Part shown: piece after piece, positions 4,846 to 59,658 of the stretch | How the letters are laid out: every line of letters starts with the position of its first letter | Position numbering within the stretch: the stretch's first letter is position 1 | Origin: Candidatus Delongbacteria bacterium | Lineage (GTDB): Bacteria; UBA4055 | NCBI GenBank assembly: GCA_016938275.1 | Contig: JAFGUZ010000165.1 | Location: 15,459 to 79,458 of the forward strand | DNA length: 64,000 bases | Direction: 5' to 3' | Program-made: the position numbers and the translations under genes | Notes under the pieces: model-generated | What the model was told of the DNA's origin: nothing | Seen by the model: the letters and a program-made list of their open reading frames with translations, nothing else | Databases searched by the model: none

Positions 4846-6630
4846 TTAGTGTTTATGTGTAACCTCTTTTACAGCATTACCAAAAGCTTTTGATCTTTCA
4901 AAGTAATTTGTGTGAAGTAATTTATGAGCAAGTTCTGAATTTGGTTTTTCTAGATAGTCTTGATAAATTTTCTGAACCATTGGATTTTCATGAGAGAATC
5001 TTATAGAAAGAGCTTTATCTTCATTATAAAGACCTTCACCACGAACTTCTCTATCAACCATTCCACAACCGAAAGGCTGACCACCACCTCCAACACATCC
5101 ACCTGGACATGCCATTACTTCAATGAAATGGAATTCAGATTTACCAGTTTCAGCAATTTGAGCTCTAACTTTATCCATTAATTTTCTAGCATTTCCAAGA
5201 CCGTTTGCAACAGCTACTCTAACAGGGAAAGGAAGTCCAGGAGCATCAATAGTTGCTTCTTTAATACCTTCTAATCCTCTAACAACTTTGATATCTGGAT
5301 CAGGAAGATTATTGTTAGTTAAAAGGAAGTATGCAGATCTTACGGCTGCTTCCATAACACCACCTGTTGCACCAAAAATTGTAGCAGCACCAGTATAAGC
5401 ACCCATCAATCTGTCAGCTTCTTCTTCAGGTAAATTTTTATAGTCTAGACCAGCTTCTTTAACCATTCTAACAAACTCTCTAGTAGTAAGAACATAATCA
5501 ACATCCTGATATCCAGAATCATTCATTTCAGGTCTTCTAGCTTCAAACTTTTTAGCAGTACAAGGCATTAGAGATACAGAAACTATATCTTTAGGATCAA
5601 TATTATTTTCTTTAGCATAATATGTTTTTACCAAAGCACCAAACATTTGCTGTGGAGATTTACAAGTAGAGACATTTTTTGCAAGATCTGGGAAGAATGT
5701 CTCCATAAATTTAATCCATCCAGGAGAACAGGAAGTAACAAGTGGTAATGTGCCACCATTAACTACTCTAGAAATAAGCTCAGAACCCTCTTCCATAATT
5801 GTAAGATCGGCTGTAAAATTTGTATCAAACACTCTGTCAAAACCAAGTCTTCTTAATGCTGCATACATTTTACCAGGAGTAGCAAGACCTTGCTCCATGC
5901 CAAATTCTTCAGCTAAAGCAACTCTGATTGCAGGAGCTTCTTGAATGACAACATGTTTTTTAGGATCAAGTAAAGCTGTCCATACTTCATCAATTTCACT
6001 TTTTTCAGTTAAAGCACCAGTTGGACAATAAACTGTACACTGTCCACAATTGATACATGGACTATTAGCCATTCCTTCATCAAAAGCTGTTGTTGCATAT
6101 GTTTTATAGCCTCTTTCAGCTTTGGTAAGAGCATTTACAGTCTGAATGGACGAACATACTTCTATACATCTTCCACAATTTATACATTTATTAGGATCTC
6201 TAATTATCGATGGGCTGGAATCGTCAACAGGAAGTCTTTCCATGCTCACAGGAACTCTTCTCATCGTTACGCTAAGATTATTTGCTAGATCTTCAAGTTC
6301 ACATTTTCCATGAGCAAGACAAGTAGGACATTCAACATGATGATCAGCCAAAGTCATCTCTAGAATAAGCTTTCTTGTTTCTCTAATACGCAATGAATTT
6401 GTTGTAACATCCATACCCTCTCTAACTGGAGTTGTACAAGATCTTTTTGGGCTATTTTCACCTTCTATATCAACAACGCATATACCACAACTTCCAGATG
6501 GTTTTAAATCTGGGTGATAACAAAGACTCGGAATTTTTATTCCAACCTTTTTTGCTGCTTCTAAAATTGTAGTGTTTTCTGGTACTTTAACTTCAAGACC
6601 GTCAATTACCAGGTTTACCATTTTTTGCAT
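4846..6630 (-). CDS. hydA: [FeFe]-hydrogenase catalytic subunit (M3-type: 2Fe-2S ferredoxin, His-ligated 4Fe-4S, 2x 4Fe-4S, H-cluster domain) with an atypical L1 motif
   Basis: N-terminal 2Fe-2S cysteines; HHVECPTCLAHGKC; CINCGRCIEVC; CINCGQCTVYCP. H-cluster motifs are L2 MPCTAKKFE and L3 EVMACPGGCVGGGGQP. L1 reads TSCSPGW (Ser where the second Cys is expected). AAGGAG RBS. Confidence 0.85.
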   Translation of the reverse strand: MQKMVNLVIDGLEVKVPENTTILEAAKKVGIKIPSLCYHPDLKPSGSCGICVVDIEGENSPKRSCTTPVREGMDVTTNSLRIRETRKLILEMTLADHHVECPTCLAHGKCELEDLANNLSVTMRRVPVSMERLPVDDSSPSIIRDPNKCINCGRCIEVCSSIQTVNALTKAERGYKTYATTAFDEGMANSPCINCGQCTVYCPTGALTEKSEIDEVWTALLDPKKHVVIQEAPAIRVALAEEFGMEQGLATPGKMYAALRRLGFDRVFDTNFTADLTIMEEGSELISRVVNGGTLPLVTSCSPGWIKFMETFFPDLAKNVSTCKSPQQMFGALVKTYYAKENNIDPKDIVSVSLMPCTAKKFEARRPEMNDSGYQDVDYVLTTREFVRMVKEAGLDYKNLPEEEADRLMGAYTGAATIFGATGGVMEAAVRSAYFLLTNNNLPDPDIKVVRGLEGIKEATIDAPGLPFPVRVAVANGLGNARKLMDKVRAQIAETGKSEFHFIEVMACPGGCVGGGGQPFGCGMVDREVRGEGLYNEDKALSIRFSHENPMVQKIYQDYLEKPNSELAHKLLHTNYFERSKAFGNAVKEVTHKH

Positions 6631-7121: not shown

Positions 7122-9413
7122 CTAAATCTCCTGTCTGTCTCTCTTTGTTGCTAACTGAATCTCATTTAAAAGAATCTTACCTTCCAGAGGCTTATGTAAA
7201 ATTTTAGCAACACCCAACTCTTCAGCCTTTTTCATATCAAAAGAGCTTGTAAATCCTGTTATTATTATTACAGGAATATTATCACCTGCAGCTTGTATTA
7301 TATCAAGACCTGTATAATTTGGCATACTCATATCGGAAATAATAATATCATAAGATCTTACATTTCTCTTTACCTCATCAATAGCTTTTTTGCTATCTGT
7401 AAAACAGGTCACCTGATGACCTACCATCTCCAATAGTTCTGAAACATTCTCAACTATTTTCTTTTCATCGTCAACCAAAAGAATTCTCTTAGGTTCAATT
7501 ACTCCACTTTCAAGACTTGAAAAGTCTGAAATAGGTTTTATTGCAGCCTCTTCAGCTATAGGAAGATATATCTTAAAAGTTGTCCCTTTATCCTCTTCTG
7601 AAACAACTTCAATATGTCCATCATAAGATTTTACTATTCCATGAACCATCGACAATCCAAGACCTGTTCCATCTTTACCTTTTGTTGTAAAATATGGATC
7701 AAAAATTCTTGTTAGATTTTCTTTTGCGATACCTTTTCCATTATCTTCAATGGACAGTAGAACATAATTGCTTTTTTTGAGGATTAAATGAAGGTGACTG
7801 TTGAGATTATTCCAATTAACATCAACTAATGATATTGAAAGCTCCCCCTGAATATCCTTCATTGCATAAATTGAATTTGTACAGAGATTCATTACAATCT
7901 GTTGAATTTCAGAAGGATCAATATAGGCAATACTATTACTATCGATATTCCGCCTGATTATTATATTTTTTGGCAATGTTGATTTTAACAGTTTTATAGT
8001 CTCTTTTACATAGATAGAAATCTGACAGGAATTCATATTATTTTCATTTTTATGACTGAAAGTAAGAATTCTTTTAACCAGTTTTTTCATGCGGTCTGCA
8101 GCTTCATAAATATCTTGAATTTTGTTTCTTACTTTGCCCTCACCTAAAGTTCTAAGCAAAATATATGAGCTACCGTATATTATAGTTAAAATATTGTTTA
8201 TATCATGGGCAATTCCACCGGCCAACGTTCCAATAGCTTCCATTTTTTGAGAATGCTTCAATTGTTCTTCCAGTAAAGATTCCTTTGTTACATCTTTTTT
8301 TACTGCAACATAGTTAGATATTTCCTTATCAACATTAAAAAGAGGATAAATAATTGCGTCTTCCTTATAAATCATACCATCTTTTTTCTTATTGAATATC
8401 GTTCCTTTCCAAAAACTTCCAGCAGAAATGGTACTCCAAATATCAGCGTAAAATTCATGTGAATGTCTTCCACTCTTAGTAAGATTCGACTTTCTTCCAA
8501 CTACTTCATCTCTTTTAAACCCTGTAACATCAAGATATCTCTGATTTACATATTCAATAAACCCATTCTTATCGCAAATCATAACTGAGTGGAGTGAATT
8601 TTCAACTACTGACGCAAGCTTAGATATCTCACTTTGATCGTTAATGTTCTTTGTTATATCAAAGGCTATTCCACCAATCAAAGGTTGGTTATTTATTCTA
8701 TTTATCAAAAACTTTTGTATCTTTAGCCTTTTAATTTCCCCATCAAAAACAAGCTTTTTATCAAATTCAACAAAACCTTTTTCCAATACAATCTTATCTT
8801 CATTTGTCAATTCTTCAGCAAAACTCTTTTCAAATATTTCATCAGTATGCTTTCCAGCATACTCACTTAGCTTAAACAACTCTTTCATATTATTATTAAC
8901 AAAGAGGTATCTTGAGTCAACAGTCTTGATAAAAACTGAAACAGATACATAATTCATAAACTGTGTAAAGATTCTTTCTAGCAGCTCACCATCTCCATAT
9001 ATATCTTTCTTTAAATCCCTGAATTGAATCTCCAAAGATTTATCTCGTTTATATTTTTCTATCGATTTATTAATTATTGAATCGATTTCTTGCTGAGAAT
9101 CGTTAATGTCAATTACATCAGAAACCCCATTTCTATAAGCTTTGATAATTGTTTTATTGGAACAATTATTGGAAAATCCTAAAACAGGGAACTCAAAAGA
9201 TTTTTCATGAAAAAAAGTTTCTTCTGTATTCAAACTATCATCAGTTAGAGACAATATTACCAAATCAGGTTTAAAATTATCAATTAAATCAAATCCAGTT
9301 TTGTGATCCAAAGCTCTAATTACATTATAGCCCAAATTATTAAGACGTTGAGCAAGCTTCTTTGTTGAATCAAGCGATGGATCAATTATCACAATTTTTT
9401 TAACTCTACACAT
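7122..9413 (-). CDS. hybrid sensor histidine kinase: N-terminal receiver-like domain, PAS domains, HisKA/HATPase_c, C-terminal receiver
   Basis: HisKA H-box AHDINNILTII. HATPase N/G boxes (DNGKGIAKENL, GTGLGLSMV). C-terminal RILLVDDEKK...IISDMSMP receiver. The N-terminus IVIIDPSLD...DLVILSL is receiver-like. Confidence 0.8.
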   Translation of the reverse strand: MCRVKKIVIIDPSLDSTKKLAQRLNNLGYNVIRALDHKTGFDLIDNFKPDLVILSLTDDSLNTEETFFHEKSFEFPVLGFSNNCSNKTIIKAYRNGVSDVIDINDSQQEIDSIINKSIEKYKRDKSLEIQFRDLKKDIYGDGELLERIFTQFMNYVSVSVFIKTVDSRYLFVNNNMKELFKLSEYAGKHTDEIFEKSFAEELTNEDKIVLEKGFVEFDKKLVFDGEIKRLKIQKFLINRINNQPLIGGIAFDITKNINDQSEISKLASVVENSLHSVMICDKNGFIEYVNQRYLDVTGFKRDEVVGRKSNLTKSGRHSHEFYADIWSTISAGSFWKGTIFNKKKDGMIYKEDAIIYPLFNVDKEISNYVAVKKDVTKESLLEEQLKHSQKMEAIGTLAGGIAHDINNILTIIYGSSYILLRTLGEGKVRNKIQDIYEAADRMKKLVKRILTFSHKNENNMNSCQISIYVKETIKLLKSTLPKNIIIRRNIDSNSIAYIDPSEIQQIVMNLCTNSIYAMKDIQGELSISLVDVNWNNLNSHLHLILKKSNYVLLSIEDNGKGIAKENLTRIFDPYFTTKGKDGTGLGLSMVHGIVKSYDGHIEVVSEEDKGTTFKIYLPIAEEAAIKPISDFSSLESGVIEPKRILLVDDEKKIVENVSELLEMVGHQVTCFTDSKKAIDEVKRNVRSYDIIISDMSMPNYTGLDIIQAAGDNIPVIIITGFTSSFDMKKAEELGVAKILHKPLEGKILLNEIQLATKRDRQEI

Positions 9414-12159: not shown

Positions 12160-12183
12160 CAAAGTAATAGAATCGTAATTTTA

Positions 12184-15607: not shown

Positions 15608-16045
15608 ATGGAAAAGGGATACGTCCTAAAAGCTGATGATAATTTTGCTGAAATTACAATAAATCTTAACAGTGGTTGTAGTGCATGTGCAAACAAAGGC
15701 GTGTGCATGGTTGGAGACAAACCGATTAATTTGAAAGTAAAAAATAAAATTGGAATGAAAAAAGGAGATCTTGTCCTTTTTGAAATCTCTTCTTCAAATA
15801 GAATAATGTTAAGTTTTTTAGTTTTCATTCTACCTTTAATCAATCTATTTGTGGGTTATTATTTAGGAGTAAAGTTTTATGAAACCGAAATCTCAGGAAT
15901 AATTGGAGCATCAATAGGTTTAATTGCCGGTGGAACAGAATTAGTTGTACTAAACAAAATCTTAAAAGACAGTGATAGGGTCACTCCACAAAATATCAGA
16001 GTTGTAAATCAAGAGGAATATGATAATTTTTCATGCTCTATCTAA
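15608..16045 (+). CDS. RseC/MucC-family (SoxR-reducing-system) Cys-rich membrane protein
   Basis: N-terminal CSACANKGVC cysteine cluster followed by two TM helices. The start abuts the upstream stop; RBS is GGGGAG. Confidence 0.6.
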   Translation: MEKGYVLKADDNFAEITINLNSGCSACANKGVCMVGDKPINLKVKNKIGMKKGDLVLFEISSSNRIMLSFLVFILPLINLFVGYYLGVKFYETEISGIIGASIGLIAGGTELVVLNKILKDSDRVTPQNIRVVNQEEYDNFSCSI

Positions 16046-16839
16046 AAACAATATTTTACTTAAGTAGACCTATAAATATTATTATAACATTATTTGTTGT
16101 TTATATAAGCTCCCGAATTGGATTACCGATTCGGGATTCTTTTTTACTTTTAGCTATATATTTAAACATTGTTCTTACACTGGCAGCAGGTAATCTCATA
16201 AATGATTTTTACGATTTTGAGCTTGATAACAGATCTTTGCAAAGTAAGACTCTAAGGCTGGGAATATATGATAAATCTGTGATTCTTATCTCTTACATTT
16301 TACTACAAATGATAAATATATTTTTATTTATTTTTGAAGATTTAAATAGAATAATAATTTTAATTTTGGTCAATATAATTCTATTTTTATACAGTCGAAA
16401 CATTACAAAATTATGGTATTTGAAAAATTTTATAGTTTCATCCTTAACGGCTTATGTAATATTCTTTGTTGCTTCTGTTTTAAATTCGAAGTCTCTCTTT
16501 TTAATGTCCACTGCCTTCTGTTTAAATTTCGCCAGAGAAATTGTAAAAGATTTTGAAGATTTAGATAATGATCGAAGTAATGGAAGATTTACAATGGCAG
16601 CAAAATTTCCAGTAAAGTCTCGATACCTAACAATTGTCTACTTAATTTTAAACCTTGTAATATCAATAATTTATTTCGAAAAACATGGCATGCCTTTTCT
16701 GTTTTCATCTATAATTTTCATATTAACTTCTATTACAATTTCAATGATCATAAAAACCGAGAAATGGAATAGAATAAGTCTTTTAATTAAAATCACTATT
16801 GCTACAGGTTTATTACTATTTTGGCTGACAATTAAATAA
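16033..16839 (+). CDS. UbiA-family aromatic/isoprenoid prenyltransferase (polytopic membrane protein)
   Basis: NDFYDFELD (NDxxDxxxD) and DFEDLDND second Asp-rich motif; ~8 TM segments. The start overlaps the upstream ORF by 13 nt. Confidence 0.65.
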   Translation: MLYLKTIFYLSRPINIIITLFVVYISSRIGLPIRDSFLLLAIYLNIVLTLAAGNLINDFYDFELDNRSLQSKTLRLGIYDKSVILISYILLQMINIFLFIFEDLNRIIILILVNIILFLYSRNITKLWYLKNFIVSSLTAYVIFFVASVLNSKSLFLMSTAFCLNFAREIVKDFEDLDNDRSNGRFTMAAKFPVKSRYLTIVYLILNLVISIIYFEKHGMPFLFSSIIFILTSITISMIIKTEKWNRISLLIKITIATGLLLFWLTIK

Positions 16840-27329: not shown

Positions 27330-27802
27330 CTTTTTATAATCTTTTCCTATTTTTTTATCTCATATTTTCTTTTTAATTATTCAAAATGTATCAGTATTGA
27401 AAGTATAAAAGTTTTTTAACAACAGATATTATTGCTTACAGGTTTTAGTAGCTAATTGTTTCCTAGTTTCATTGGAAGAATAAACGATAAGGAGGTGATT
27501 TTTGGGATATTTACTACAATAGACTATAATTTTTTGTAGGACTGTAAAGATAATGCAAAAAACATGTTCAGAAATAATAGTCGCTAGTTAAGGTATTCCA
27601 TTCATGCATTTAATATTTTTAACCGTGAGGGTTCTTTATAGATAAAAGGATTGACAATAAAATATTATTTTGACCTCTATGATTTCCAATAGCTTTGCCA
27701 GAGTAATTTCAACTGTGAATCAATCAGTAAAAATCGTATAAATTATTCATTTGTGTTCACACGACACAATATATATATTCAAAGTCAAAACGCGGAAGGG
27801 AA

Positions 27803-38910: not shown

Positions 38911-39234
38911 ATGACACAAACAGGAATCATTCAAATAGATACAAACGGTGCTAAGTATGAAACTGAGTTCACTGATAATTATCTTGAGAATATTAAATAT
39001 AAATTACCTGAGCAAGGTCAGCTTAAAGCTGTCATCCCAGGTCTTATTACTGATATCAAAGTGTCTTCTGGCTCTAAATTAAAAAAGGGGAAAACAATTC
39101 TTGTTTTAGAAGCTATGAAAATGCTCAATGACATATTTATTGACTTTGATATAATTGTGAAAGATATTTCGGTTTCTGTTGGTGATATTGTTGTTAAAAA
39201 TCAACTTTTAATCACCTATGAACGAGCCGAATAA
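38911..39234 (+). CDS. small biotin carboxyl carrier (biotinyl-domain) protein
   Basis: EAMKM biotinylation motif in a ~70-aa C-terminal biotinyl domain; 107 aa (1.3S/MmdC-like). Confidence 0.8.
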   Translation: MTQTGIIQIDTNGAKYETEFTDNYLENIKYKLPEQGQLKAVIPGLITDIKVSSGSKLKKGKTILVLEAMKMLNDIFIDFDIIVKDISVSVGDIVVKNQLLITYERAE

Positions 39235-39252
39235 AATAGATAAACCATCTAA

Positions 39253-39277
39253 AACCGGCTTGCTAAGTCGGTTTTTT
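39253..39277 (+). terminator. rho-independent terminator after the biotin-carrier gene (AACCGGCT-tgcta-AGTCGGTT + T6)
   Basis: 8-bp stem (one G-U) followed by TTTTTT. Confidence 0.55.
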
Positions 39278-40779: not shown

Positions 40780-41028
40780 CTATTTCCACCTCTTCAAATT
40801 TGGCAAAGTTTGATTCAGAATTTCCCTCGCTTCTTGTTCGTTCATACCCTCTTCTTTCATATACTGTACACAAATATTAATCATACTATCCATTGTAATT
40901 TCAGGAATAGTATACTTACCATTCTGATAACAATAAGTACAAAACTCATTTGTTTTTGTGCCATCTTCCAATGTTCCAAATAGATTTTCATTCTCCATTG
41001 GCATCCCACAGCTTTGACATAGATTCAT
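40780..41028 (-). CDS. small C4 zinc-ribbon domain protein (82 aa)
   Basis: CQSCGMP...CTYCY two CxxC pairs. Belongs to the 'putative zinc ribbon' small-protein family. Confidence 0.55.
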   Translation of the reverse strand: MNLCQSCGMPMENENLFGTLEDGTKTNEFCTYCYQNGKYTIPEITMDSMINICVQYMKEEGMNEQEAREILNQTLPNLKRWK

Positions 41029-48204: not shown

Positions 48205-49629
48205 ATGTTGAAAACCGGATTGAGCACATCACTTAAACTAGAAACTAGAATAGATCCGGCATTAATTTTGAGATCAGAATTACTTGAGCTCCCCTTACTT
48301 CAATTAGACAATAGAATTCAATTAGAATTATCAGTCAATCCTTTTTTAGTCACAGATTTAGAATTTGATGAAGGTCTCGAAATATCCACTACTGAAACTA
48401 AAAACGAAGAGAAGACAGATGATTTTGACTGGGAAGAATATGTAAAAGACTTTTCAAATTATGAAGACAATTATCCAACAATGTACGATAAAGATAAAGA
48501 TGAGATTGAGTTCCAACCTCCAGTAGAAACAACTCTTGAAGATTCTCTTATACTTCAACTTAGTGATGGTAATTTTAACGAATTAGAACAAGAAATTGCT
48601 AAGGAGATTATTGGAAACATTGATAATGATGGGTATTTAGCTTGTCCTCTGTATGATATATCAAGGAATTTTGATGGAATTGACGAAGAAACAGTGGAGA
48701 ATGTTCTAAAAAAAGTTCAATTGTTAGATCCCGTAGGAATAGCCTCAAGAGACGTGAGAGAGTGCCTATTGACCCAATTATTGAATCAAGAACTCTATAT
48801 GGAAGATTCTTTAATTGTGCTAAGAGATTACTATAATGATTTTGTCAATAAACGCTATGAAAAAATTATGAAACGCACTGGAATCGATAGAGATCAGATG
48901 CAAGAGGTAATAGAAGAGATTACTTCTTTAAATCCCAAGCCAGGGTCTTCCAGAAAAATCGATCAATGGGAAAAAACACACCAGAGTGTCGATAAGAAAG
49001 ATTCCATAACTCCTGATTTCTTTGTTAGAGAAATTGATGGAGAAATCACAATTTTACTCAATGACTCATTTGTTCCAAATCTTGCCATTAATCAACAATA
49101 CAGCAATTTAATTCTTTCAAATACAACTGAAAAAACTACTAAAGACTTTGTGAAACGTAAGCTTGAATCTGCCAGATGGTTCATTAACGCAATTGCTCAA
49201 AGAAAAAACACTTTGAGAAAGGTAATGCTTTCAATAGTTAAGTTTCAGGAAGATTTCTTTAGAAAAGGACCTGAACAGATCAAACCTCTCATATTAAAAG
49301 ATGTTGCAGAAGATATTGAAATGGATGTAGCTACCGTTTCAAGATGTACAAAAGAAAAGTATGTTGATACTGAATATGGAATTTTTGAATTGAAGTATTT
49401 TTTTACGGATAAGCTTGCGACTGTGGACGGAGATGATGTTTCAACAACAGTTGTAAAGGAGAGGATTAGAGCTATCATAGATAAAGAGGATAAGAAAAAT
49501 CCTTTTTCAGATCAAACTATATCAGAACTCCTAAGAGAAGAGGGTCATACGGCTGCAAGAAGAACAGTTCAAAAATATAGGGAACAAATGGCAATTCCTG
49601 TTGCAAGACTTAGAAAAGATATTTTCTAG
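48205..49629 (+). CDS. rpoN: RNA polymerase sigma-54 factor
   Basis: C-terminal RpoN box ARRTVQKYRE; an HTH and an acidic region II. 474 aa. Confidence 0.9.
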   Translation: MLKTGLSTSLKLETRIDPALILRSELLELPLLQLDNRIQLELSVNPFLVTDLEFDEGLEISTTETKNEEKTDDFDWEEYVKDFSNYEDNYPTMYDKDKDEIEFQPPVETTLEDSLILQLSDGNFNELEQEIAKEIIGNIDNDGYLACPLYDISRNFDGIDEETVENVLKKVQLLDPVGIASRDVRECLLTQLLNQELYMEDSLIVLRDYYNDFVNKRYEKIMKRTGIDRDQMQEVIEEITSLNPKPGSSRKIDQWEKTHQSVDKKDSITPDFFVREIDGEITILLNDSFVPNLAINQQYSNLILSNTTEKTTKDFVKRKLESARWFINAIAQRKNTLRKVMLSIVKFQEDFFRKGPEQIKPLILKDVAEDIEMDVATVSRCTKEKYVDTEYGIFELKYFFTDKLATVDGDDVSTTVVKERIRAIIDKEDKKNPFSDQTISELLREEGHTAARRTVQKYREQMAIPVARLRKDIF

Positions 49630-52301: not shown

Positions 52302-55300
52302 TCATAATACAGACTCTTTTATAATCATCAAAAGGTCATTAAGAACAGATAATTCAAAATCTTCAATTGCCTTTTCAAGTTTTATCGAATAATCTTTCAG
52401 TACCAAATCATCATCACTTCCCAAAGATTCTGAAAAAGCCCTATAATCTGATATGTTTTTGCTTTTTTCTGCTTTAATAAGAAGATTCAATTGCTTAATA
52501 TTTAAGTTCAACTTTTTTTCGAGATTATTCTTTTTAGTTAATTTTAGAGTTTGAACAATCTCAATAATCTTTTCTTCAAAAACATCTCTGTTGACAATGA
52601 GATCAAAAAGTTCATTGTGACTTTCATCTATATTCTTTAAATCAGATATCGCAATAATCTTTACTTCTTTTATATGTTTGAATAATCTTATGATACGAAT
52701 ACCATCTCTGAAGCTATTTTGTATATAGTCAAAATTTATTATCATGAAGCTGACATTGGTACTATCAATAAATTCTTCGAAAGCCATTTCATCGATATGA
52801 AATTCGAGTCGAACATTGTAATTGGAAAATTTATACGAGATCAGTTCATTCATAGTTGGACTTTCAAAAAAAACGGCACCTTTAAGTTTTCTATCTTGAT
52901 CAATACTTTTATCTATATTCTCATTATCAACCGTAATTTTACGCATATTAAATAAAGAGACATTAAATTCCGAACCTTGATTTACCTGACTTTTTACTTC
53001 AATCATTCCACCAAGTAAATTAACCAATCTCTTTGTAATCGAAAGTCCCAATCCTGTTCCTCCATACTTTCTTGAAAGATTGGATTCTCCTTGTGAGAAT
53101 GGCTCGAAAATCTGATCCTTAAACTCATCTGTAATACCTACCCCTGTATCCACAACAGATATAAATATGTTGTAAATTCTAAATCTCACTCTATTTGCAC
53201 TTACTTTTATAATTACGGAACCGTGATCTGTAAACTTGATAGCATTACCAACCAAATTAACTAAAATCTGTCTAAGTATCGTGATATCAGAAATAATAGA
53301 TTGAGGAGTATTTGGAGATACATAGCTTTGTAGTAGAAGTCCTTTTTCTTTTGCAATTGCATAGAAAATAGTTTTGACATCTTCTATAAGATTTGTAATA
53401 TTTACAGAGTCTTCAATAATATTTACTTTTCCAGCGTCGATTTTTGATAAATCCAAAATATTATTTAAAGTACAGAGTAAATCTTTAGATCCTTTATGTA
53501 TGTTGAAAAGGTAATTTTTATATTTCTCATCAATATCAGATTCCATTAAAATATTCGTGTAACCTAACACCGCATTCAAAGGTGTTCTAATTTCGTGACT
53601 AACAGTAGCTATAAATTCCGATTTTGTTAAACTTGCTTTTTCTGCTTCAGCCTTCGATTTTTCTGCTTCATTTTTAGCCTTGACAAGTCTATTTTCCAAA
53701 TCTTTATTTTGAGTAATATCCGTACCAATAAATAGAAGTTCAACTTTCGAATCCTCTGAACTGATTATTCGAACATTCCATAAAATCCATTTCCTTTCGC
53801 CTGATCGTGTTTTAATTTGTGCTTCAAATGATGTTTGAGAATTTCTGTCTTTGAACAAACCATCTAATCTATCACCAAATTTTTCAAGACCATTGGACGC
53901 TTCAAAAAGTTTTTCAAAAGATGTATATGAAGTATTAACAATTGTTAGATTCAATAACTCCACACCAATGGGATTGATATAAATCAATTTACCATTGCTA
54001 TCAAATCTTAATATTAGATTAGCAGCATAATCAATAATCTCTTTTATGTTTTTTTCACTTTGAGCTAACTGTTTAGTTCTCAGATCAATTTGATTCTCTA
54101 GATCCAAATTCAACTCAGTAAGTTTATCCTCAGCTACTTTCCTCTTCGTTATGTCAATAACAAGTACCAAACAAAGTCGTTCTTCATTTTTCTCTGAAAG
54201 CACGACAGGAGTAAACCTTCCTTCAAACCACTTCAACTCTCCATTAATTTCTAAAGAATACTCATATGATTTAACTTTTTCAGAGTTTAAGGAATTTGTA
54301 ATCATCTTTTTATATTTCAATGCAATTCCATCAGGTAATACTTCTGAAAGGTTCTTATTAATTAAATTGTTTGGATCAGATATTAAAAGCTCGTTATGAT
54401 TTGTAATTACGTCTTTGTAATTTCCATCTTTATCCATTACAAAAATTATATCCGGAACGGCATTCATCAAAGCTTTTAACTTACTTTCATTCTCAATTAG
54501 TTTAAACTCTTTGTATTTAAGTTCACTTATATCTCCAATAATGAAAATATAGGATTTACTTATAAACTCTTCCAGTTGTGAAACTGCTACTTGAAAATAT
54601 TTTTGTCCAATCTCAATTTCAAAATTGTTTTCATTGCTGGTAATAAAATAATCAAATATTTTTGTAAAATGAATGAGGTCGCTATCAAAATTCAACCAGT
54701 ATGAATTGACAGTTTCACAAATTTTATCTTCAATATAGTTTTTTTCATCTACTAATATTAAGCCTACTGAGATATTGTTCTTAATGCCTTTCAATATATG
54801 ATTTACTCTTTCAAATTCGGTTTTATTTTCTGTAACACTCTTTATAAGTGAATCCATATTTTTTTTTATGGAGGTAAAATCCTCACTATCGACTTTAAAA
54901 GAATCGGGGAAAAAATCACTAATACTCATTAAAATCTCTTTGATAGGCATAAAAAATCTGACTAGAATTATGTAAACAAGAAGAAGAGCTAAGGTAATTG
55001 CTAAAATAAAGATAATCAAACCAGACCAAATAGAATTTTTAAGCATAGAAATTTGAGTTTCAGAAATCGAAACAAGCAAAATAAATTTACCCTTATTCAA
55101 ATATATAGGACTCCTGAAACTGATAAAACTACCCTTGTGAAATGAAACTAAACTCTCTAAAGATTCATTTTTAAAGACTAAAGAATCTTTATTAATTATC
55201 TCGTCTTCAGGTTTTTCAAAAATCGAAAATATTTTGTTACCATTTGAATCAAATATCGCTATCAAAGATAATTTTTTTTCGATTAGTATCTGCTTTATAC

Positions 55301-55556
55301 TGTTTTCTAAAATATAATCGCTTTTACCATAATGATTCTCAAAGATAGATCTAATCTCTTCATGCACTGTCTCATACAATCTTCTAGCTGACTGATTATG
55401 TTTAAACTTTATAAGAAAAAGATCTGTCACGTACACAGAACCAACAGCTAAAATCAAAATTGCAGAAAAACTGATCATCAATCTAAGAAACAATGACCTA
55501 CTTAGATCAGACTTATTGTTATCACTCATATTATTACTCATTTTGATATATATCAA
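52302..55556 (-). CDS. large membrane sensor histidine kinase (two TM helices, periplasmic-type sensor, multiple PAS domains, HisKA/HATPase_c, ~250-aa C-terminal extension)
   Basis: H-box VSHEIRTPLNAVLGY. N/G boxes (NAIKFTDHG, GGTGLGLSITKRL). PAS repeats between residues ~350-650. Confidence 0.8.
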   Translation of the reverse strand: MIYIKMSNNMSDNNKSDLSRSLFLRLMISFSAILILAVGSVYVTDLFLIKFKHNQSARRLYETVHEEIRSIFENHYGKSDYILENSIKQILIEKKLSLIAIFDSNGNKIFSIFEKPEDEIINKDSLVFKNESLESLVSFHKGSFISFRSPIYLNKGKFILLVSISETQISMLKNSIWSGLIIFILAITLALLLVYIILVRFFMPIKEILMSISDFFPDSFKVDSEDFTSIKKNMDSLIKSVTENKTEFERVNHILKGIKNNISVGLILVDEKNYIEDKICETVNSYWLNFDSDLIHFTKIFDYFITSNENNFEIEIGQKYFQVAVSQLEEFISKSYIFIIGDISELKYKEFKLIENESKLKALMNAVPDIIFVMDKDGNYKDVITNHNELLISDPNNLINKNLSEVLPDGIALKYKKMITNSLNSEKVKSYEYSLEINGELKWFEGRFTPVVLSEKNEERLCLVLVIDITKRKVAEDKLTELNLDLENQIDLRTKQLAQSEKNIKEIIDYAANLILRFDSNGKLIYINPIGVELLNLTIVNTSYTSFEKLFEASNGLEKFGDRLDGLFKDRNSQTSFEAQIKTRSGERKWILWNVRIISSEDSKVELLFIGTDITQNKDLENRLVKAKNEAEKSKAEAEKASLTKSEFIATVSHEIRTPLNAVLGYTNILMESDIDEKYKNYLFNIHKGSKDLLCTLNNILDLSKIDAGKVNIIEDSVNITNLIEDVKTIFYAIAKEKGLLLQSYVSPNTPQSIISDITILRQILVNLVGNAIKFTDHGSVIIKVSANRVRFRIYNIFISVVDTGVGITDEFKDQIFEPFSQGESNLSRKYGGTGLGLSITKRLVNLLGGMIEVKSQVNQGSEFNVSLFNMRKITVDNENIDKSIDQDRKLKGAVFFESPTMNELISYKFSNYNVRLEFHIDEMAFEEFIDSTNVSFMIINFDYIQNSFRDGIRIIRLFKHIKEVKIIAISDLKNIDESHNELFDLIVNRDVFEEKIIEIVQTLKLTKKNNLEKKLNLNIKQLNLLIKAEKSKNISDYRAFSESLGSDDDLVLKDYSIKLEKAIEDFELSVLNDLLMIIKESVL

Positions 55557-55837
55557 CTTTAATTTATGGTTATTTATTGTAATTTGTCAAATCTGATTTT
55601 CAATTATCTGTTAATTCATTATAGGTAATCTTCATCGATTGTTGAAAAATTATAATAAACTATAAACATAGAGTACACTAAAAAAAATGTTGACTAAAGT
55701 GTTAATGATTATTATTGTTATAGCGGGAACTTAAAATGGATTAACAGATGCTCAATTATAAATCATCTAAAAATATAAAAAAGAATATGAAGATGTTACT
55801 AATAAGGATGTAGTAAATCAGTTTTATTAATTTATTG

Positions 55838-55862
55838 AAAGCCGGGTTTACTCGGCTTTTTT
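55838..55862 (+). promoter_or_regulatory. terminator-like hairpin with U-tract ending 8 nt before the lysA RBS (candidate transcription attenuator)
   Basis: AAAGCCGGG-ttta-CTCGGCTTTTTT, 7-10 bp stem with one G-U, then TTTTTT. No upstream plus-strand gene needs it. It follows a ~280-nt AT-rich leader. Confidence 0.4.
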
Positions 55863-55879
55863 GTTTCAATGGAGGTATT

Positions 55880-57124
55880 ATGCAGGATATCTTATGTGCA
55901 AAAGTTTCAACTAAAAATGGTTTTTATAAAAATCACTCACCAGTTGATCTAGTAAATATTTACTCCTCTCCGCTGTATGTTTACAATGAAGAGATCATTA
56001 TCGAGAGAGTTAAAAGAATGAAATCTTTAATTAAGAGTAAAAATTTTAAGCCCTATTATTCAGTTAAGGCAAACAACAATTCTTACATTCTGCGTACAAT
56101 TCATAAATTAGGTATGGGTTTTGAAACTGTATCCTTAGAAGAGGTAAAATATCTTATAAAATTAGGAATATCAGTTGATAAGATTATCTCGACTCCAAAT
56201 AATATTGGTTATGAAGAGTTAAGAAGCCTTATAAATCTTGGAGTTGATCTGACTTTAGATTCTCTTGACCAATTACAGATGGCCGTTAATATTGACAATA
56301 AAAGGAAATTTAAAATTAGAATCAATTCTGGAATAGGTCTAGGACATAGTAACAAAGTAGTTACTGGAGGAAAAAATACAAAATTTGGATTTGATGAAAC
56401 TGAATTATTGGAACTTCTCAATACTGATTTTTTGACAGAGAAGATTGATGGTTTAATGCATCATATGGGATCACTTTTTTTAGATGAAGATGGTTACATC
56501 AAAGGAGCAAGAAAACTTCTTGAATATGCAAAATTATTCAATAATATTAAAACGGTGGATTTTGGAGGTGGATTTGGAGTCTCTTACAATCTTCGTGATT
56601 CGCAAAATGATTTAAATATAGCAAATCTGAGTTATGAGTTAACTAAATTAGTAGATGAATACAAATTTTACGATTGTGAAATACGTATTGAACCAGGCAG
56701 GTACATTGTTGCTGAAAGTTGCATTTTGCTTGGAAAAATTACATCAAAAAAAGTTAGTAATAGTAAAATATATGTCGGCTGTGATATTGGCTTTAATCAG
56801 ATGCCTAGAACTGCCTTATATGGAAGTTACCATGATTTAGAGTTTTATTCAAAAAATATGAAATCAAGAACCAGACAAAGGGTAAACATCGTTGGTAACA
56901 TATGTGAAAGTGGCGATTACATTGCAACAGATCGAGAGTTTTATGAGTTATTCCCCGATGATATAATTGGAGTACTCACTTGCGGTGCATATGGCTATTC
57001 AATGAGTTCAAATTACAACATGAGATTTAGACCAGCTGAAATTATGATTTTAGAAGATGGATCAGTTAGACTTATTAGAAGACGAGAAGAATTAGATGAT
57101 TTTATTAATTTGATGGAGTTCTAA
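55880..57124 (+). CDS. lysA: diaminopimelate decarboxylase (PLP-dependent, Orn/DAP/Arg decarboxylase family 2)
   Basis: YSVKANNN PLP-Lys motif; GGGFG; the C-terminal CESGD-type motif is approximate. The start was moved to MQDIL with a GGAGG RBS. The ORF-track start at 55835 lies inside the hairpin. Confidence 0.85.
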   Translation: MQDILCAKVSTKNGFYKNHSPVDLVNIYSSPLYVYNEEIIIERVKRMKSLIKSKNFKPYYSVKANNNSYILRTIHKLGMGFETVSLEEVKYLIKLGISVDKIISTPNNIGYEELRSLINLGVDLTLDSLDQLQMAVNIDNKRKFKIRINSGIGLGHSNKVVTGGKNTKFGFDETELLELLNTDFLTEKIDGLMHHMGSLFLDEDGYIKGARKLLEYAKLFNNIKTVDFGGGFGVSYNLRDSQNDLNIANLSYELTKLVDEYKFYDCEIRIEPGRYIVAESCILLGKITSKKVSNSKIYVGCDIGFNQMPRTALYGSYHDLEFYSKNMKSRTRQRVNIVGNICESGDYIATDREFYELFPDDIIGVLTCGAYGYSMSSNYNMRFRPAEIMILEDGSVRLIRRREELDDFINLMEF

Positions 57125-58494
57125 TGTTACGTGTAGAAAAAATTGGTGGAACATCAATGAGTAGGTTTAAAGAGATACTTCAAAATATTTTTCTCTACGA
57201 AAATAAAATTTACGGGAGAATCTTTGTAGTTTCAGCATACTCAGGAGTTACTGATATTCTGCTTGAAAATAAAAAAAATAATAATCCTGGTGTATTCGGA
57301 GCATTTCCTGACGATGATTATCTCAATAAACTGGATGATGTAGAAAAGAAGCTGAAGGAAATCAATTTTCAGTTCGAAAAGCTAGGCTTAGATATACATA
57401 AAGCAAATTTAGCTATTGAAAATAGAGTTTCAGCAATTGCAGATTATCTGAAAAATTTGGATTCAATTTTGTGCTCAGGATACGTAGAAAAAAACAATAT
57501 CATCCTAACTGCAAGAGAAATTCTTGCGGGTTTGGGAGAATTCCATTCTGCATACAATACGACAGAAATTTTGAAGAGCCATGGAATAAACGCAAAGCTC
57601 ATTGACCTCTCATGTATCAATGATAAAAATAATTATACTGTGGATCAAAGATTGAGAAATTCAGTAAATCTATTCGATCCTGAAATCGAGGTTCCAATCA
57701 TAACCGGTTATGTAAAAGGTGTGGATGGATTAATGAGAGAATTTGACAGAGGTTATTCTGAAATCACCTTCGCAAAAATAGCAGTTTATTCCAATTCAAA
57801 TGAAGCCATCATACACAAAGAATATAATTTATCTTCAGCTGATCCAAAAATAGTTGGAGTATCTAATTGTAAATCCATTAGATATACAAATTATGATGTT
57901 GCCGACCAACTGGCTGATATTGGAATGGAGGCTATCCATCCAAAAGCATCAAAACTATTGGAAAAATCTGGTATTGATTTGATAATTAAAAATAGTTTTA
58001 AACCTGAAGATCATGGTACGATTATCACATCGGAACATAAAAATCAAAATCCCTCCGTTGAAATAATTTCTGGCTGTGACAAAGTTATACTAATCGATGT
58101 TTTTGATTCGGAAATGGTATTAAAAACAGGGTTTGATCTCAATATAATGGAAGAGCTGAAAAGACACAATATTAGTTATATAATGAAATCTACCTCTGCA
58201 AATAGTATCTCCTTTGTGATTCACGAAAAAGATTTTCACTCTGAGCTAATTAAGCAATTATCTATAAACTATGACAAAGTATCTAAAGAAGAAATAGCTA
58301 TTGTGTCAGTGATTGGGGCTAGCCTCAATATTCCAGGAATATTGTTCCAGATAAGTAAATGTATGTTTCATGAAAAAATCAACATTAAAGCAGTCTCAGT
58401 AGCCTATAGTCAAACAAATGTTCAATTTGTAATTTCAAGGGCTAATTACCGAAAGGCGATCATCACTTTAAATAACGAATTCTTCATCAAATGA
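57124..58494 (+). CDS. lysC: aspartate kinase (monofunctional, with C-terminal ACT domains)
   Basis: VEKIGGTSM and VVSAYSGVTD kinase motifs. C-terminal ACT repeats. The start overlaps the lysA stop (TAATG). Confidence 0.8.
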   Translation: MLRVEKIGGTSMSRFKEILQNIFLYENKIYGRIFVVSAYSGVTDILLENKKNNNPGVFGAFPDDDYLNKLDDVEKKLKEINFQFEKLGLDIHKANLAIENRVSAIADYLKNLDSILCSGYVEKNNIILTAREILAGLGEFHSAYNTTEILKSHGINAKLIDLSCINDKNNYTVDQRLRNSVNLFDPEIEVPIITGYVKGVDGLMREFDRGYSEITFAKIAVYSNSNEAIIHKEYNLSSADPKIVGVSNCKSIRYTNYDVADQLADIGMEAIHPKASKLLEKSGIDLIIKNSFKPEDHGTIITSEHKNQNPSVEIISGCDKVILIDVFDSEMVLKTGFDLNIMEELKRHNISYIMKSTSANSISFVIHEKDFHSELIKQLSINYDKVSKEEIAIVSVIGASLNIPGILFQISKCMFHEKINIKAVSVAYSQTNVQFVISRANYRKAIITLNNEFFIK

Positions 58495-58530
58495 AAGCTA
58501 GATTTCGATATAAAAATAATTGAAAAAAAC

Positions 58531-58562
58531 TTTGCAAATTTTGTAATTAATTCTTATATTTG
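58531..58562 (+). promoter_or_regulatory. Bacteroidetes-type sigmaA promoter (-33 TTTG, 20 nt, -7 TAtaTTTG) for the rplM-rpsI operon
   Basis: TTTG at 58531-58534 and TATATTTG at 58555-58562 match the FCB-group consensus TTTG-N19-21-TAnnTTTG. Confidence 0.45.
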
Positions 58563-58671
58563 CAAGCTGTAATTATGTACCGAATTGGTAGATTCGGTTG
58601 AGAACCAAACTCTCATGATACCCGGAATTGATTGGGAGAGCGGAGAAAAACTGAATAATTGAGGAGATCTA

Positions 58672-59526: not shown

Positions 59527-59658
59527 TACTTTCTTTAAAACTGTAAAAAATTTCGAATTCAGACTGAAGGTTCGGGTGTATGAAGAGATCATACCAGCCT
59601 GATGAGTGAAGAATTCGGAAGGGAGATAATCCCAAAACCCGTAAATTTAGGAGATTAA

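Follow-up and report, generated by a model that had tools for sequence, protein, structure and literature searches.

Among the systems known to act on amino-acid genes through a terminator in the leader RNA, one that comes close to the locus described here is the lysine riboswitch (L-box or LYS element, Rfam family RF00168), which precedes genes of the lysC and lysA type and has as its expression platform either a terminator placed just before the ribosome-binding site (RBS) or a structure that sequesters the RBS. Lysine riboswitches occur chiefly in the Firmicutes and Gammaproteobacteria and seldom in other groups (PMC5584792). The T-box leaders (RF00230) are also terminator-based control elements upstream of amino-acid genes, and in the leader-peptide attenuators (trp, his, thr, leu and phe types) a short open reading frame (ORF) and then a terminator stand before a biosynthetic operon. 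In the protein-dependent attenuators (TRAP-trp, PyrR-pyr, HutP and BglG/ANTAR types) a trans-acting factor decides at the terminator, as one would at the present locus under one of the options considered below. Outside the Firmicutes and Gammaproteobacteria, the control of lysine genes is poorly known. For the Delongbacteria we know of no lysine riboswitches and of nothing on the control of lysine biosynthesis, nor do we know of any lysine leader peptide, and a full-text search of the literature for lysine leader peptides or for regulation in Delongbacteria returned nothing relevant.

Here we describe the leader of a lysA-lysC operon in a 64-kb stretch of DNA from the metagenome-assembled genome of an uncultured bacterium labeled Candidatus Delongbacteria, a stretch referred to below as the window, whose numbering is used throughout. 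The leader ends in a hairpin that resembles an intrinsic terminator and lies immediately ahead of the lysA Shine-Dalgarno (SD) sequence, i.e., where a terminator platform would be expected upstream of a lysine gene under riboswitch control. Unlike the lysine riboswitch, this leader lacks a G/C-rich junction core, has no covariance-model match to the five-helix junction and shows no significant folding; unlike a T-box leader, it has no match to the stem I/specifier/antiterminator model and forms no antiterminator in RNA from the best promoter candidate. It differs from the leader-peptide attenuators in lacking a clearly significant run of Lys codons, an RBS for its short ORF and a 2:3 antiterminator, and in the position of the ORF's stop codon, 24 nt off the stem. 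By eye, it also differs from the protein-dependent attenuators, having no TRAP-, HutP- or PyrR-type repeats and no CsrA-like GGA motifs beyond expectation, and no dual hairpins of the ANTAR type.

The lysA-lysC locus and its neighbors

The window has a GC content of ~31%, and the genes around the leader lie in the order histidine kinase (minus strand), divergent intergenic region, lysA, lysC, rplM, rpsI, rpsB, tsf and pyrH, with LysA, LysC, L13, S9, S2, EF-Ts and PyrH identical to MBN1971657-63 and MBN2835842-48. The kinase gene (52302-55529, minus strand), whose product has PAS, HisKA and HATPase_c domains, is identified by Pfam matches, the gene call and the ORF list; the gene caller starts it at 55529, and 55541 and 55556 are alternative candidate starts. 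On the other side of the intergenic region, lysA (55880-57124, plus strand) encodes a diaminopimelate decarboxylase of 414 aa, recognized by its PLP decarboxylase domain and its homologues, and lysC (57124-58494, plus strand), whose start overlaps the lysA stop, encodes a monofunctional aspartate kinase of 456 aa with an AA_kinase domain and C-terminal ACT domains. The window holds no other lysine genes and, over its 64 kb, no tRNA genes. The divergent intergenic region itself (55530-55879, ~350 nt) has a GC content of about 21-23%. When gap lengths are computed from our own gene list, the kinase-lysA gap, at 338 nt, is the longest among the eight divergent intergenic regions of the window, the others measuring 86-216 nt.

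The start of lysA bears on how the hairpin is to be read. The Met at 55880 aligns with residue 1 in many LysA homologues, and an SD sequence, GGAGG (55871-55875, plus strand), lies 4 nt 5' of this ATG, in a window where an SD motif precedes half to three quarters of the long ORFs. An in-frame TTG at 55835 was considered as an alternative start and ruled out by the alignment of homologue N-termini. Because the N-termini of the homologues and the GGAGG fix the lysA start at 55880, the hairpin belongs to the non-coding leader. On the opposite strand, a 37-aa ORF (55756-55869) runs over the hairpin; it was rejected as composition-driven, having a TTG start and no SD. The ORF list contains no plus-strand ORF of more than 26 aa between the kinase gene and lysA, and the only gene upstream is the divergent kinase on the minus strand, so that the earlier note was right to state that no upstream plus-strand gene needs a terminator here.

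A terminator-like hairpin ahead of lysA

The element (55837-55866, plus strand) consists of a stem-loop at 55837-55860 (GAAAGCCGGG TTTA CTCGGCTTTT; 10 pairs, five of them G-C; -12.9 kcal/mol) and a run of six T residues (55857-62), which contributes the final four bases of the stem and is followed by G TTT. It thus has the build of an intrinsic terminator, a G/C-rich stem-loop directly followed by a U run. Eight nt separate the T run from GGAGG, and the element lies 17 nt ahead of the lysA ATG. Within 1.2 kb, one terminator-like site is observed where 0.2 are expected. A strict scan of the whole window on both strands (at least 9 pairs, at least 4 of them G-C, and a T run, with block-wise dinucleotide shuffles as the null) gave 14 registers at six loci, compared with a mean of 1.25 registers in the shuffles, which is an excess of about tenfold. 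Five of the six strong hairpins sit 0-66 nt past a co-directional stop codon, at 12160 on the minus strand and at 16111, 39251, 48034 and 61333 on the plus strand, and the combination of A-tract, GC stem and T run found in the lysA hairpin is common to the gene-end terminators at 12160, 39251, 48034 and 61333. Each of these five thus has a gene upstream on its own strand; the lysA hairpin alone lacks one, and it is single-copy. It belongs, in other words, to the class of terminators that this genome uses, and is an orphan of that class.

The terminator-like hairpin with a U6 run that had been claimed just 5' of the GGAGG is therefore present, with a 10-bp stem of -12.9 kcal/mol and a T6 run that together exceed shuffle expectation. 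We also consider the label of candidate attenuator that was given to this orphan to be a fair one, because the hairpin lies within the leader of lysA-lysC and has no upstream gene to end. A likeness within the same window is offered by the leaky inter-gene terminator before matE (39251-39275), which resembles the lysA hairpin in its build and in its distance from the SD and start codon that follow; the matE terminator ends a real gene of 107 aa, whereas the lysA hairpin has nothing, annotated or detectable, to end.

Viewed as DNA, the hairpin is a 22-bp imperfect palindrome located 20-43 bp before the start codon, and as such it might be the operator of a dimeric repressor or, in RNA, a protective stem-loop, with no role in termination. 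We hold this to be highly unlikely, given that the A-tract and T6 flanks are exactly those of the gene-end terminators in the window and that no promoter candidate is close enough for an operator or for a stem-loop at the 5' terminus of the message.

Promoter candidates and the body of the leader

The best sigma-70-like promoter candidate on the plus strand (55690-55718; TTGACT, a 17-nt spacer and TATTGT; a 9/12 match) would place the RNA start near 55725 and give a leader of ~155 nt. Other genes of the window carry promoters of the TTGAC...TATAAT type; promoters of the Bacteroidetes type (TAnnTTTG) were considered as well and show no enrichment upstream of the window's genes. The scan found no plus-strand promoter-like site between 55719 and 55880, and a promoter downstream of or within the hairpin was rejected, by scan and by inspection, for want of a credible -10 element. 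Farther upstream, a weak promoter-like site at 55543-55570 would correspond to a putative start near 55577. There is also a TGG-N9-TGC arrangement at 55737-55751, with the GG/GC spacing of a sigma-54 promoter and 8/12 consensus positions; rpoN is present in the window at 48205-49629, and RNA from this site, if it is a real promoter, would start inside the short ORF discussed below.

From the candidate start to the hairpin, the AU-rich body of the leader (55722-55836, plus strand) has no significant structure, its minimum free energy (MFE) of -11.9 kcal/mol being that of shuffled sequences (-11.6 +/- 2.7 kcal/mol; z -0.12), and this stability was reached by 89 of 200 shuffles. Two other leaders from this window, those of rplM and rpsB, served as positive controls and gave z values of -2.22 and -1.95, respectively. 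The 21% GC of the leader body bears out the description of an AT-rich leader ahead of lysA-lysC and is typical of the intergenic DNA of this genome; at this composition no conserved-looking core was seen in the leader, which has no significant similarity to the rest of the window. The two control leaders merit a remark of their own. The rplM-rpsI leader (58530-58671; z -2.22) and the rpsB leader (59527-59658; z -1.95) are more stable than shuffles, have 32-36% GC, above other intergenic DNA, and show no match to the ribosomal-protein leaders of Rfam; they may be lineage-specific autoregulatory leaders.

Known RNA families were sought at several levels of stringency. At gathering scores, no Rfam family has a match anywhere in the 64 kb. 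A scan of 55400-56000 (601 nt) with permissive filters and a cut-off of E<=10 returned no Lysine or T-box match and otherwise chance matches only, e.g., a flavivirus hairpin on the opposite strand, and a scan of the whole window at E<=1 added nothing. The covariance models, up to E<=10, thus agree with the initial impression that no L-box or T-box is recognizable in this leader. The proposal that the leader is a diverged riboswitch fares poorly, as there is no covariance-model match and the leader body has 21% GC and a z of -0.12. A novel riboswitch-like leader would be expected to have a structure upstream of its terminator with thermodynamic or evolutionary support, and none is seen by folding, either in 55722-55836 (z -0.12) or in the longer stretch 55577-55832 (z -0.75). 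That a lysine riboswitch is missing here is unremarkable, since such riboswitches are rare outside the Firmicutes and Gammaproteobacteria (PMC5584792). Nothing around the hairpin resembles a lysine sensor, and the leader RNA is not detectably a sensor.

A promoter candidate and a terminator that both stand alone in an intergenic region form the classical signature used in the prediction of small RNAs (sRNAs), and both are present here, at 55690-55718 and 55837-62. The two could bound an independent short RNA, either an sRNA or one derived from the 5'-UTR, of ~140 nt (or up to ~290 nt from the upstream start), with lysA-lysC expressed by leakage past its terminator. This has a modest chance of being correct, both as to the RNA and as to its length. 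In its favor, a transcription unit ends at five of the window's six strong terminators. Against it, the supposed RNA has an unstructured body (z -0.12) and no Rfam match, neither a second copy nor anything similar occurs in 73 kb of this genome, and its promoter matches at only 9/12. Moreover, it would physically be the same element as the one that is read here as an attenuator.

The 21-codon reading frame

A second feature of the leader is a short upstream ORF (uORF), MLNYKSSKNIKKNMKMLLIRM (55748-55813, plus strand), to which attention had been drawn because of its Lys codons. It exists as claimed, with 21 codons of which five specify Lys, but it does not clearly rise above chance and is without an SD. 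None of GGAG, GAGG, AGGA or AAGG occurs within 20 nt upstream of 55748, where there is only a TGGA, and the uORF thus does not have the ribosome-binding site with which the ORF of a leader-peptide attenuator is provided. An ATG ORF of at least 21 codons is present in 41% of dinucleotide-shuffled leaders, and one of 15 codons or more that includes five or more Lys in 8% of them; the Lys content (5 of 20 codons, where composition predicts a Lys fraction of 9.7%) has a binomial P of 0.04. The stop codon lies 24 nt ahead of the terminator stem, so a terminating ribosome would probably not reach the hairpin. No antiterminator pairing that overlaps the uORF was found, and the ribosome-controlled antiterminator of such systems is lacking.

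The adjacent AAA AAG codons of the uORF form an in-frame A_AAA_AAG heptamer (55777-83), i.e., a slippery site, after which the first stop in the -1 frame is the TAA at 55828-30, 6 nt short of the terminator stem. Such an arrangement of heptamer and -1 stop occurs in 0.45% of shuffles by a test that was devised post hoc. We regard it as a curiosity and do not count it as support, because the test was post hoc and because a starved ribosome would lag behind the polymerase.

Ribosome-mediated attenuation through the uORF would require that translation of its five Lys codons, including the adjacent AAA AAG, governs the hairpin; in a variant, a -1 slip at A_AAA_AAG would take the ribosome as far as the stop at 55828-30 and so place it over the 5' arm of the terminator. 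We give very little credence to either form. The slippery heptamer with its -1 stop, at 0.45% of shuffles (post hoc), and the Lys codons themselves are set against the want of an SD in a genome that uses them, a length and a Lys content that are not clearly significant, a stop 24 nt before the stem with no antiterminator in between, and the likelihood that a ribosome short of Lys-tRNA would fall behind the polymerase and come too late to block the hairpin. The sigma-54-like site at 55737-51, if real, would in addition start the RNA inside the uORF. The suggestion of an undescribed attenuation mechanism for lysine biosynthesis that works through the uORF is accordingly not upheld, the uORF being statistically unremarkable, devoid of an RBS and free of any overlapping antiterminator.

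Comparison with other genomes

A search with LysA in genome and metagenome contig collections found no relative. The closest LysA (Firmicutes-like) shares 46% identity and the closest LysC (Bacteroidota and KSB3) 52%, and none of these has the same gene order; the difference between the nearest groups of LysA and LysC suggests separate histories of the two operon genes. A scan based on L13 yielded 80 rplM loci, all from other phyla, none of which has lysA or lysC within 6 kb of rplM. In none of the six homologue loci that were fetched are lysA and lysC paired, and their upstream regions are unrelated to the present leader; a terminator-like hairpin is found upstream in one of the six (L084), and Rfam scans of three of these loci gave only cobalamin and THF riboswitches, located elsewhere. 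A degenerate pattern of the hairpin matched 68 loci in metagenomes, all of them unrelated chance terminators. A second contig carries the lysA-lysC locus and is identical to the window, and an orthologous leader was not found in any of the collections searched. Sequencing run SRR13394437 also yields an assembly of the contig.

The dapB gene of the same genome is found 8 kb outside the window, where it follows a peptidase gene and has no leader or terminator of its own; this layout gives no support to a lysine regulon and does not refute one either. On this adjoining stretch (L154), dapB (7426-8202) overlaps the end of the M23 peptidase gene, and a promoter-like TTGACT-16-TATATT sequence (6038-6074) ends 7 nt before the peptidase ATG, hinting at an mRNA that is leaderless or nearly so.

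Candidate long-range pairing and an inverted repeat

Antiterminator pairing was assessed by ending the RNA before the 3' arm of the hairpin, which frees the 5' arm to pair with upstream sequence (55660/55722-55836). Within the leader from the best promoter candidate, no antiterminator was found: the gain of -1.8 to -2.5 kcal/mol equals that of shuffles (p about 0.45) and compares with -12.9 kcal/mol for the terminator. The only candidate antiterminator strand lies farther upstream (55589-55604, plus strand) and can pair with 55834-55849, a segment that takes in the terminator's 5' arm. This duplex has -10.7 to -12.1 kcal/mol and is equaled by 7.5% of shuffles (p about 0.08); for long-range pairing of the terminator arm proper, p is 0.54. 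The candidate is thus marginal, and would be relevant only if transcription starts upstream of 55589. When RNA from 55577 to 55850 is folded without the 3' arm, the MFE structure adopts the long-range helix, stacked on a second helix between 55605-55629 and 55725-55749 (z -1.72); with the terminator left out (55577-55832), z is -0.75. For 55577-55866 as a whole, z is -2.10 on the plus strand and -2.63 on the minus strand, and because the minus strand gives at least as strong a signal, inverted repeats at the level of DNA fit better than a strand-specific RNA fold.

These observations bear on an undescribed RNA of the riboswitch-like or tRNA-sensing kind that would start near 55577 and use the helix 55589-55604/55834-55849 as its antiterminator, a ligand such as lysine, diaminopimelate or tRNA-Lys shifting the balance between antiterminator and terminator. 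The duplex is comparable in stability to the terminator (-10.7 to -12.1 kcal/mol), the MFE fold of 55577-55850 adopts exactly the proposed structure (z -1.72), and the weak site at 55543-55570 could serve as promoter. We nonetheless judge such an RNA, and any role of a ligand in it, to be decidedly improbable. The duplex is matched by 7.5% of shuffles and the arm alone has a p of 0.54; z falls to -0.75 without the terminator, and the opposite strand shows a signal no weaker; at 21% GC the leader has no conserved-looking core and no Rfam match. The helix would also have to close over ~230 nt during transcription, and the putative start lies inside the kinase gene's own promoter and 5' region.

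An inverted repeat with arms at 55606-55626 and 55729-55749 (18 of 21 positions complementary) encloses the promoter candidate, with TCAATT directly to its left and again 2 nt off its right end. It may be an RNA helix, a DNA-level repeat or the remnant of an inserted element. The stretch 55600-55757 resembles a small inserted element of ~146 bp, and an insertion of this size would explain why the kinase-lysA gap is the longest divergent gap in the window. Miniature inverted-repeat elements are defined by terminal inverted repeats, a target-site duplication and multiple copies; here the TCAATT is offset by 2 nt on one side, and no further copies of the repeat arms occur in 73 kb of this genome (the window and L154), so that the stretch falls short of that definition.

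The hairpin could be an evolutionary leftover, either the terminator of an upstream gene since lost in a rearrangement or the cargo of an inserted element, leaky and tolerated and without a regulatory role. The longest divergent gap of the window, the 18/21 repeat with TCAATT flanks around the promoter candidate and a fold signal that is not strand specific (z -2.10 plus, -2.63 minus) are in keeping with such an origin, as is a lysA-lysC-rplM order that recurs in 0/80 other rplM loci and 0/6 homologue loci. We think it unlikely all the same, as the repeat arms have no second copy in 73 kb and a useless terminator of -12.9 kcal/mol, 17 nt before a biosynthesis operon, should be selected against.

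Other features of the window

Several features seen elsewhere in the window are recorded here in their own right. A 107-aa ORF with a biotin-lipoyl domain (38911-39234), missed at the 120-aa ORF cut-off, is the gene ended by the terminator at 39251-39275, which lies 18 nt before the GTG start of matE (39294; SD GGGGG). A sigma-70-like promoter with a TG extension (39128-39155; 11/12) lies inside the ORF upstream of matE, and this layout of promoter, about 95 nt, terminator and SD could be an efflux-pump attenuator. The 482-nt gap between matE and a gene for a WYL-domain regulator is occupied by an 82-aa Cys-rich ORF (40780-41028, minus strand; CxxC ... CxxC, zinc-ribbon-like) that also falls below the ORF cut-off. 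The terminator-like hairpin at 16111-16146 (-17.6 kcal/mol and a T run), 66 nt past the stop of an RseC/MucC-like gene, lies in the 5' part of a UbiA-family ORF (16033-16839) whose Pfam match begins at residue 18; either this is a terminator within coding sequence or the start of the UbiA ORF is mis-set. Upstream of an HtrA-like protease gene, a stretch of 473 nt (27330-27802) contains a GGAGG-like motif and promoter-like sites, and has no ORF of at least 30 aa on either strand and no Rfam match.

Proposed expression of lysA-lysC through a leader terminator

Our preferred reading, to which we tentatively assign a probability of about 45%, is that the hairpin is a terminator in the leader which polymerases have to pass on their way to lysA-lysC, whether constitutively or under a trans-acting factor. 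Transcription would start in the AT-rich divergent region, most likely from TTGACT-17-TATTGT (55690-55718), and RNA polymerase would arrive at the terminator after about 115-140 nt, where a fraction of the transcripts would end at the T run (55857-62). GGAGG and lysA-lysC would then be carried by read-through transcripts only, because the 8-nt gap between the T run and the RBS is too short for a promoter. What is observed here are the sequence features with their statistics; where transcription starts, that it terminates in vivo and how it might be regulated we infer. Since the leader RNA gives no sign of sensing, the share of transcripts that read through would be either constant or governed by a trans-acting factor. 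A constant share would damp expression and leave the control of flux to the ACT-domain aspartokinase; in enzymes of this kind, allosteric feedback may carry most of the control.

The arrangement before matE, a terminator (39251-39275) with the SD within about 10-20 nt, is counted in favor of the read-through reading, as it indicates that genes directly behind terminators are not unique to lysA in this genome. To judge from their layout, matE and lysA would both have to be expressed by read-through. Several points count against the preferred reading: a strong unregulated terminator before a biosynthetic operon is an odd design, and the marginal long-range antiterminator comes into play if transcription starts farther upstream. 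In addition, no candidate RNA-binding regulator was found among the genes of the window, which include no regulator gene of the TRAP, PyrR, HutP or BglG/ANTAR type.

The broader proposal that the leader is an attenuator of an undescribed class that responds to the lysine pathway, be it through an AU-rich sensor with the long-range helix or through a ribosome switch at A_AAA_AAG, appears to us improbable. We regard the locus as a reasonable but ordinary-looking attenuator candidate, with no evidence for a new mechanism and with a response to lysine that is at most putative. On present evidence, the hairpin is simply a candidate site of premature termination; a leader terminator that has no recognizable sensor, as this one may be, might be the sign of an antitermination factor acting in trans or of an RNA sensor of a new kind.
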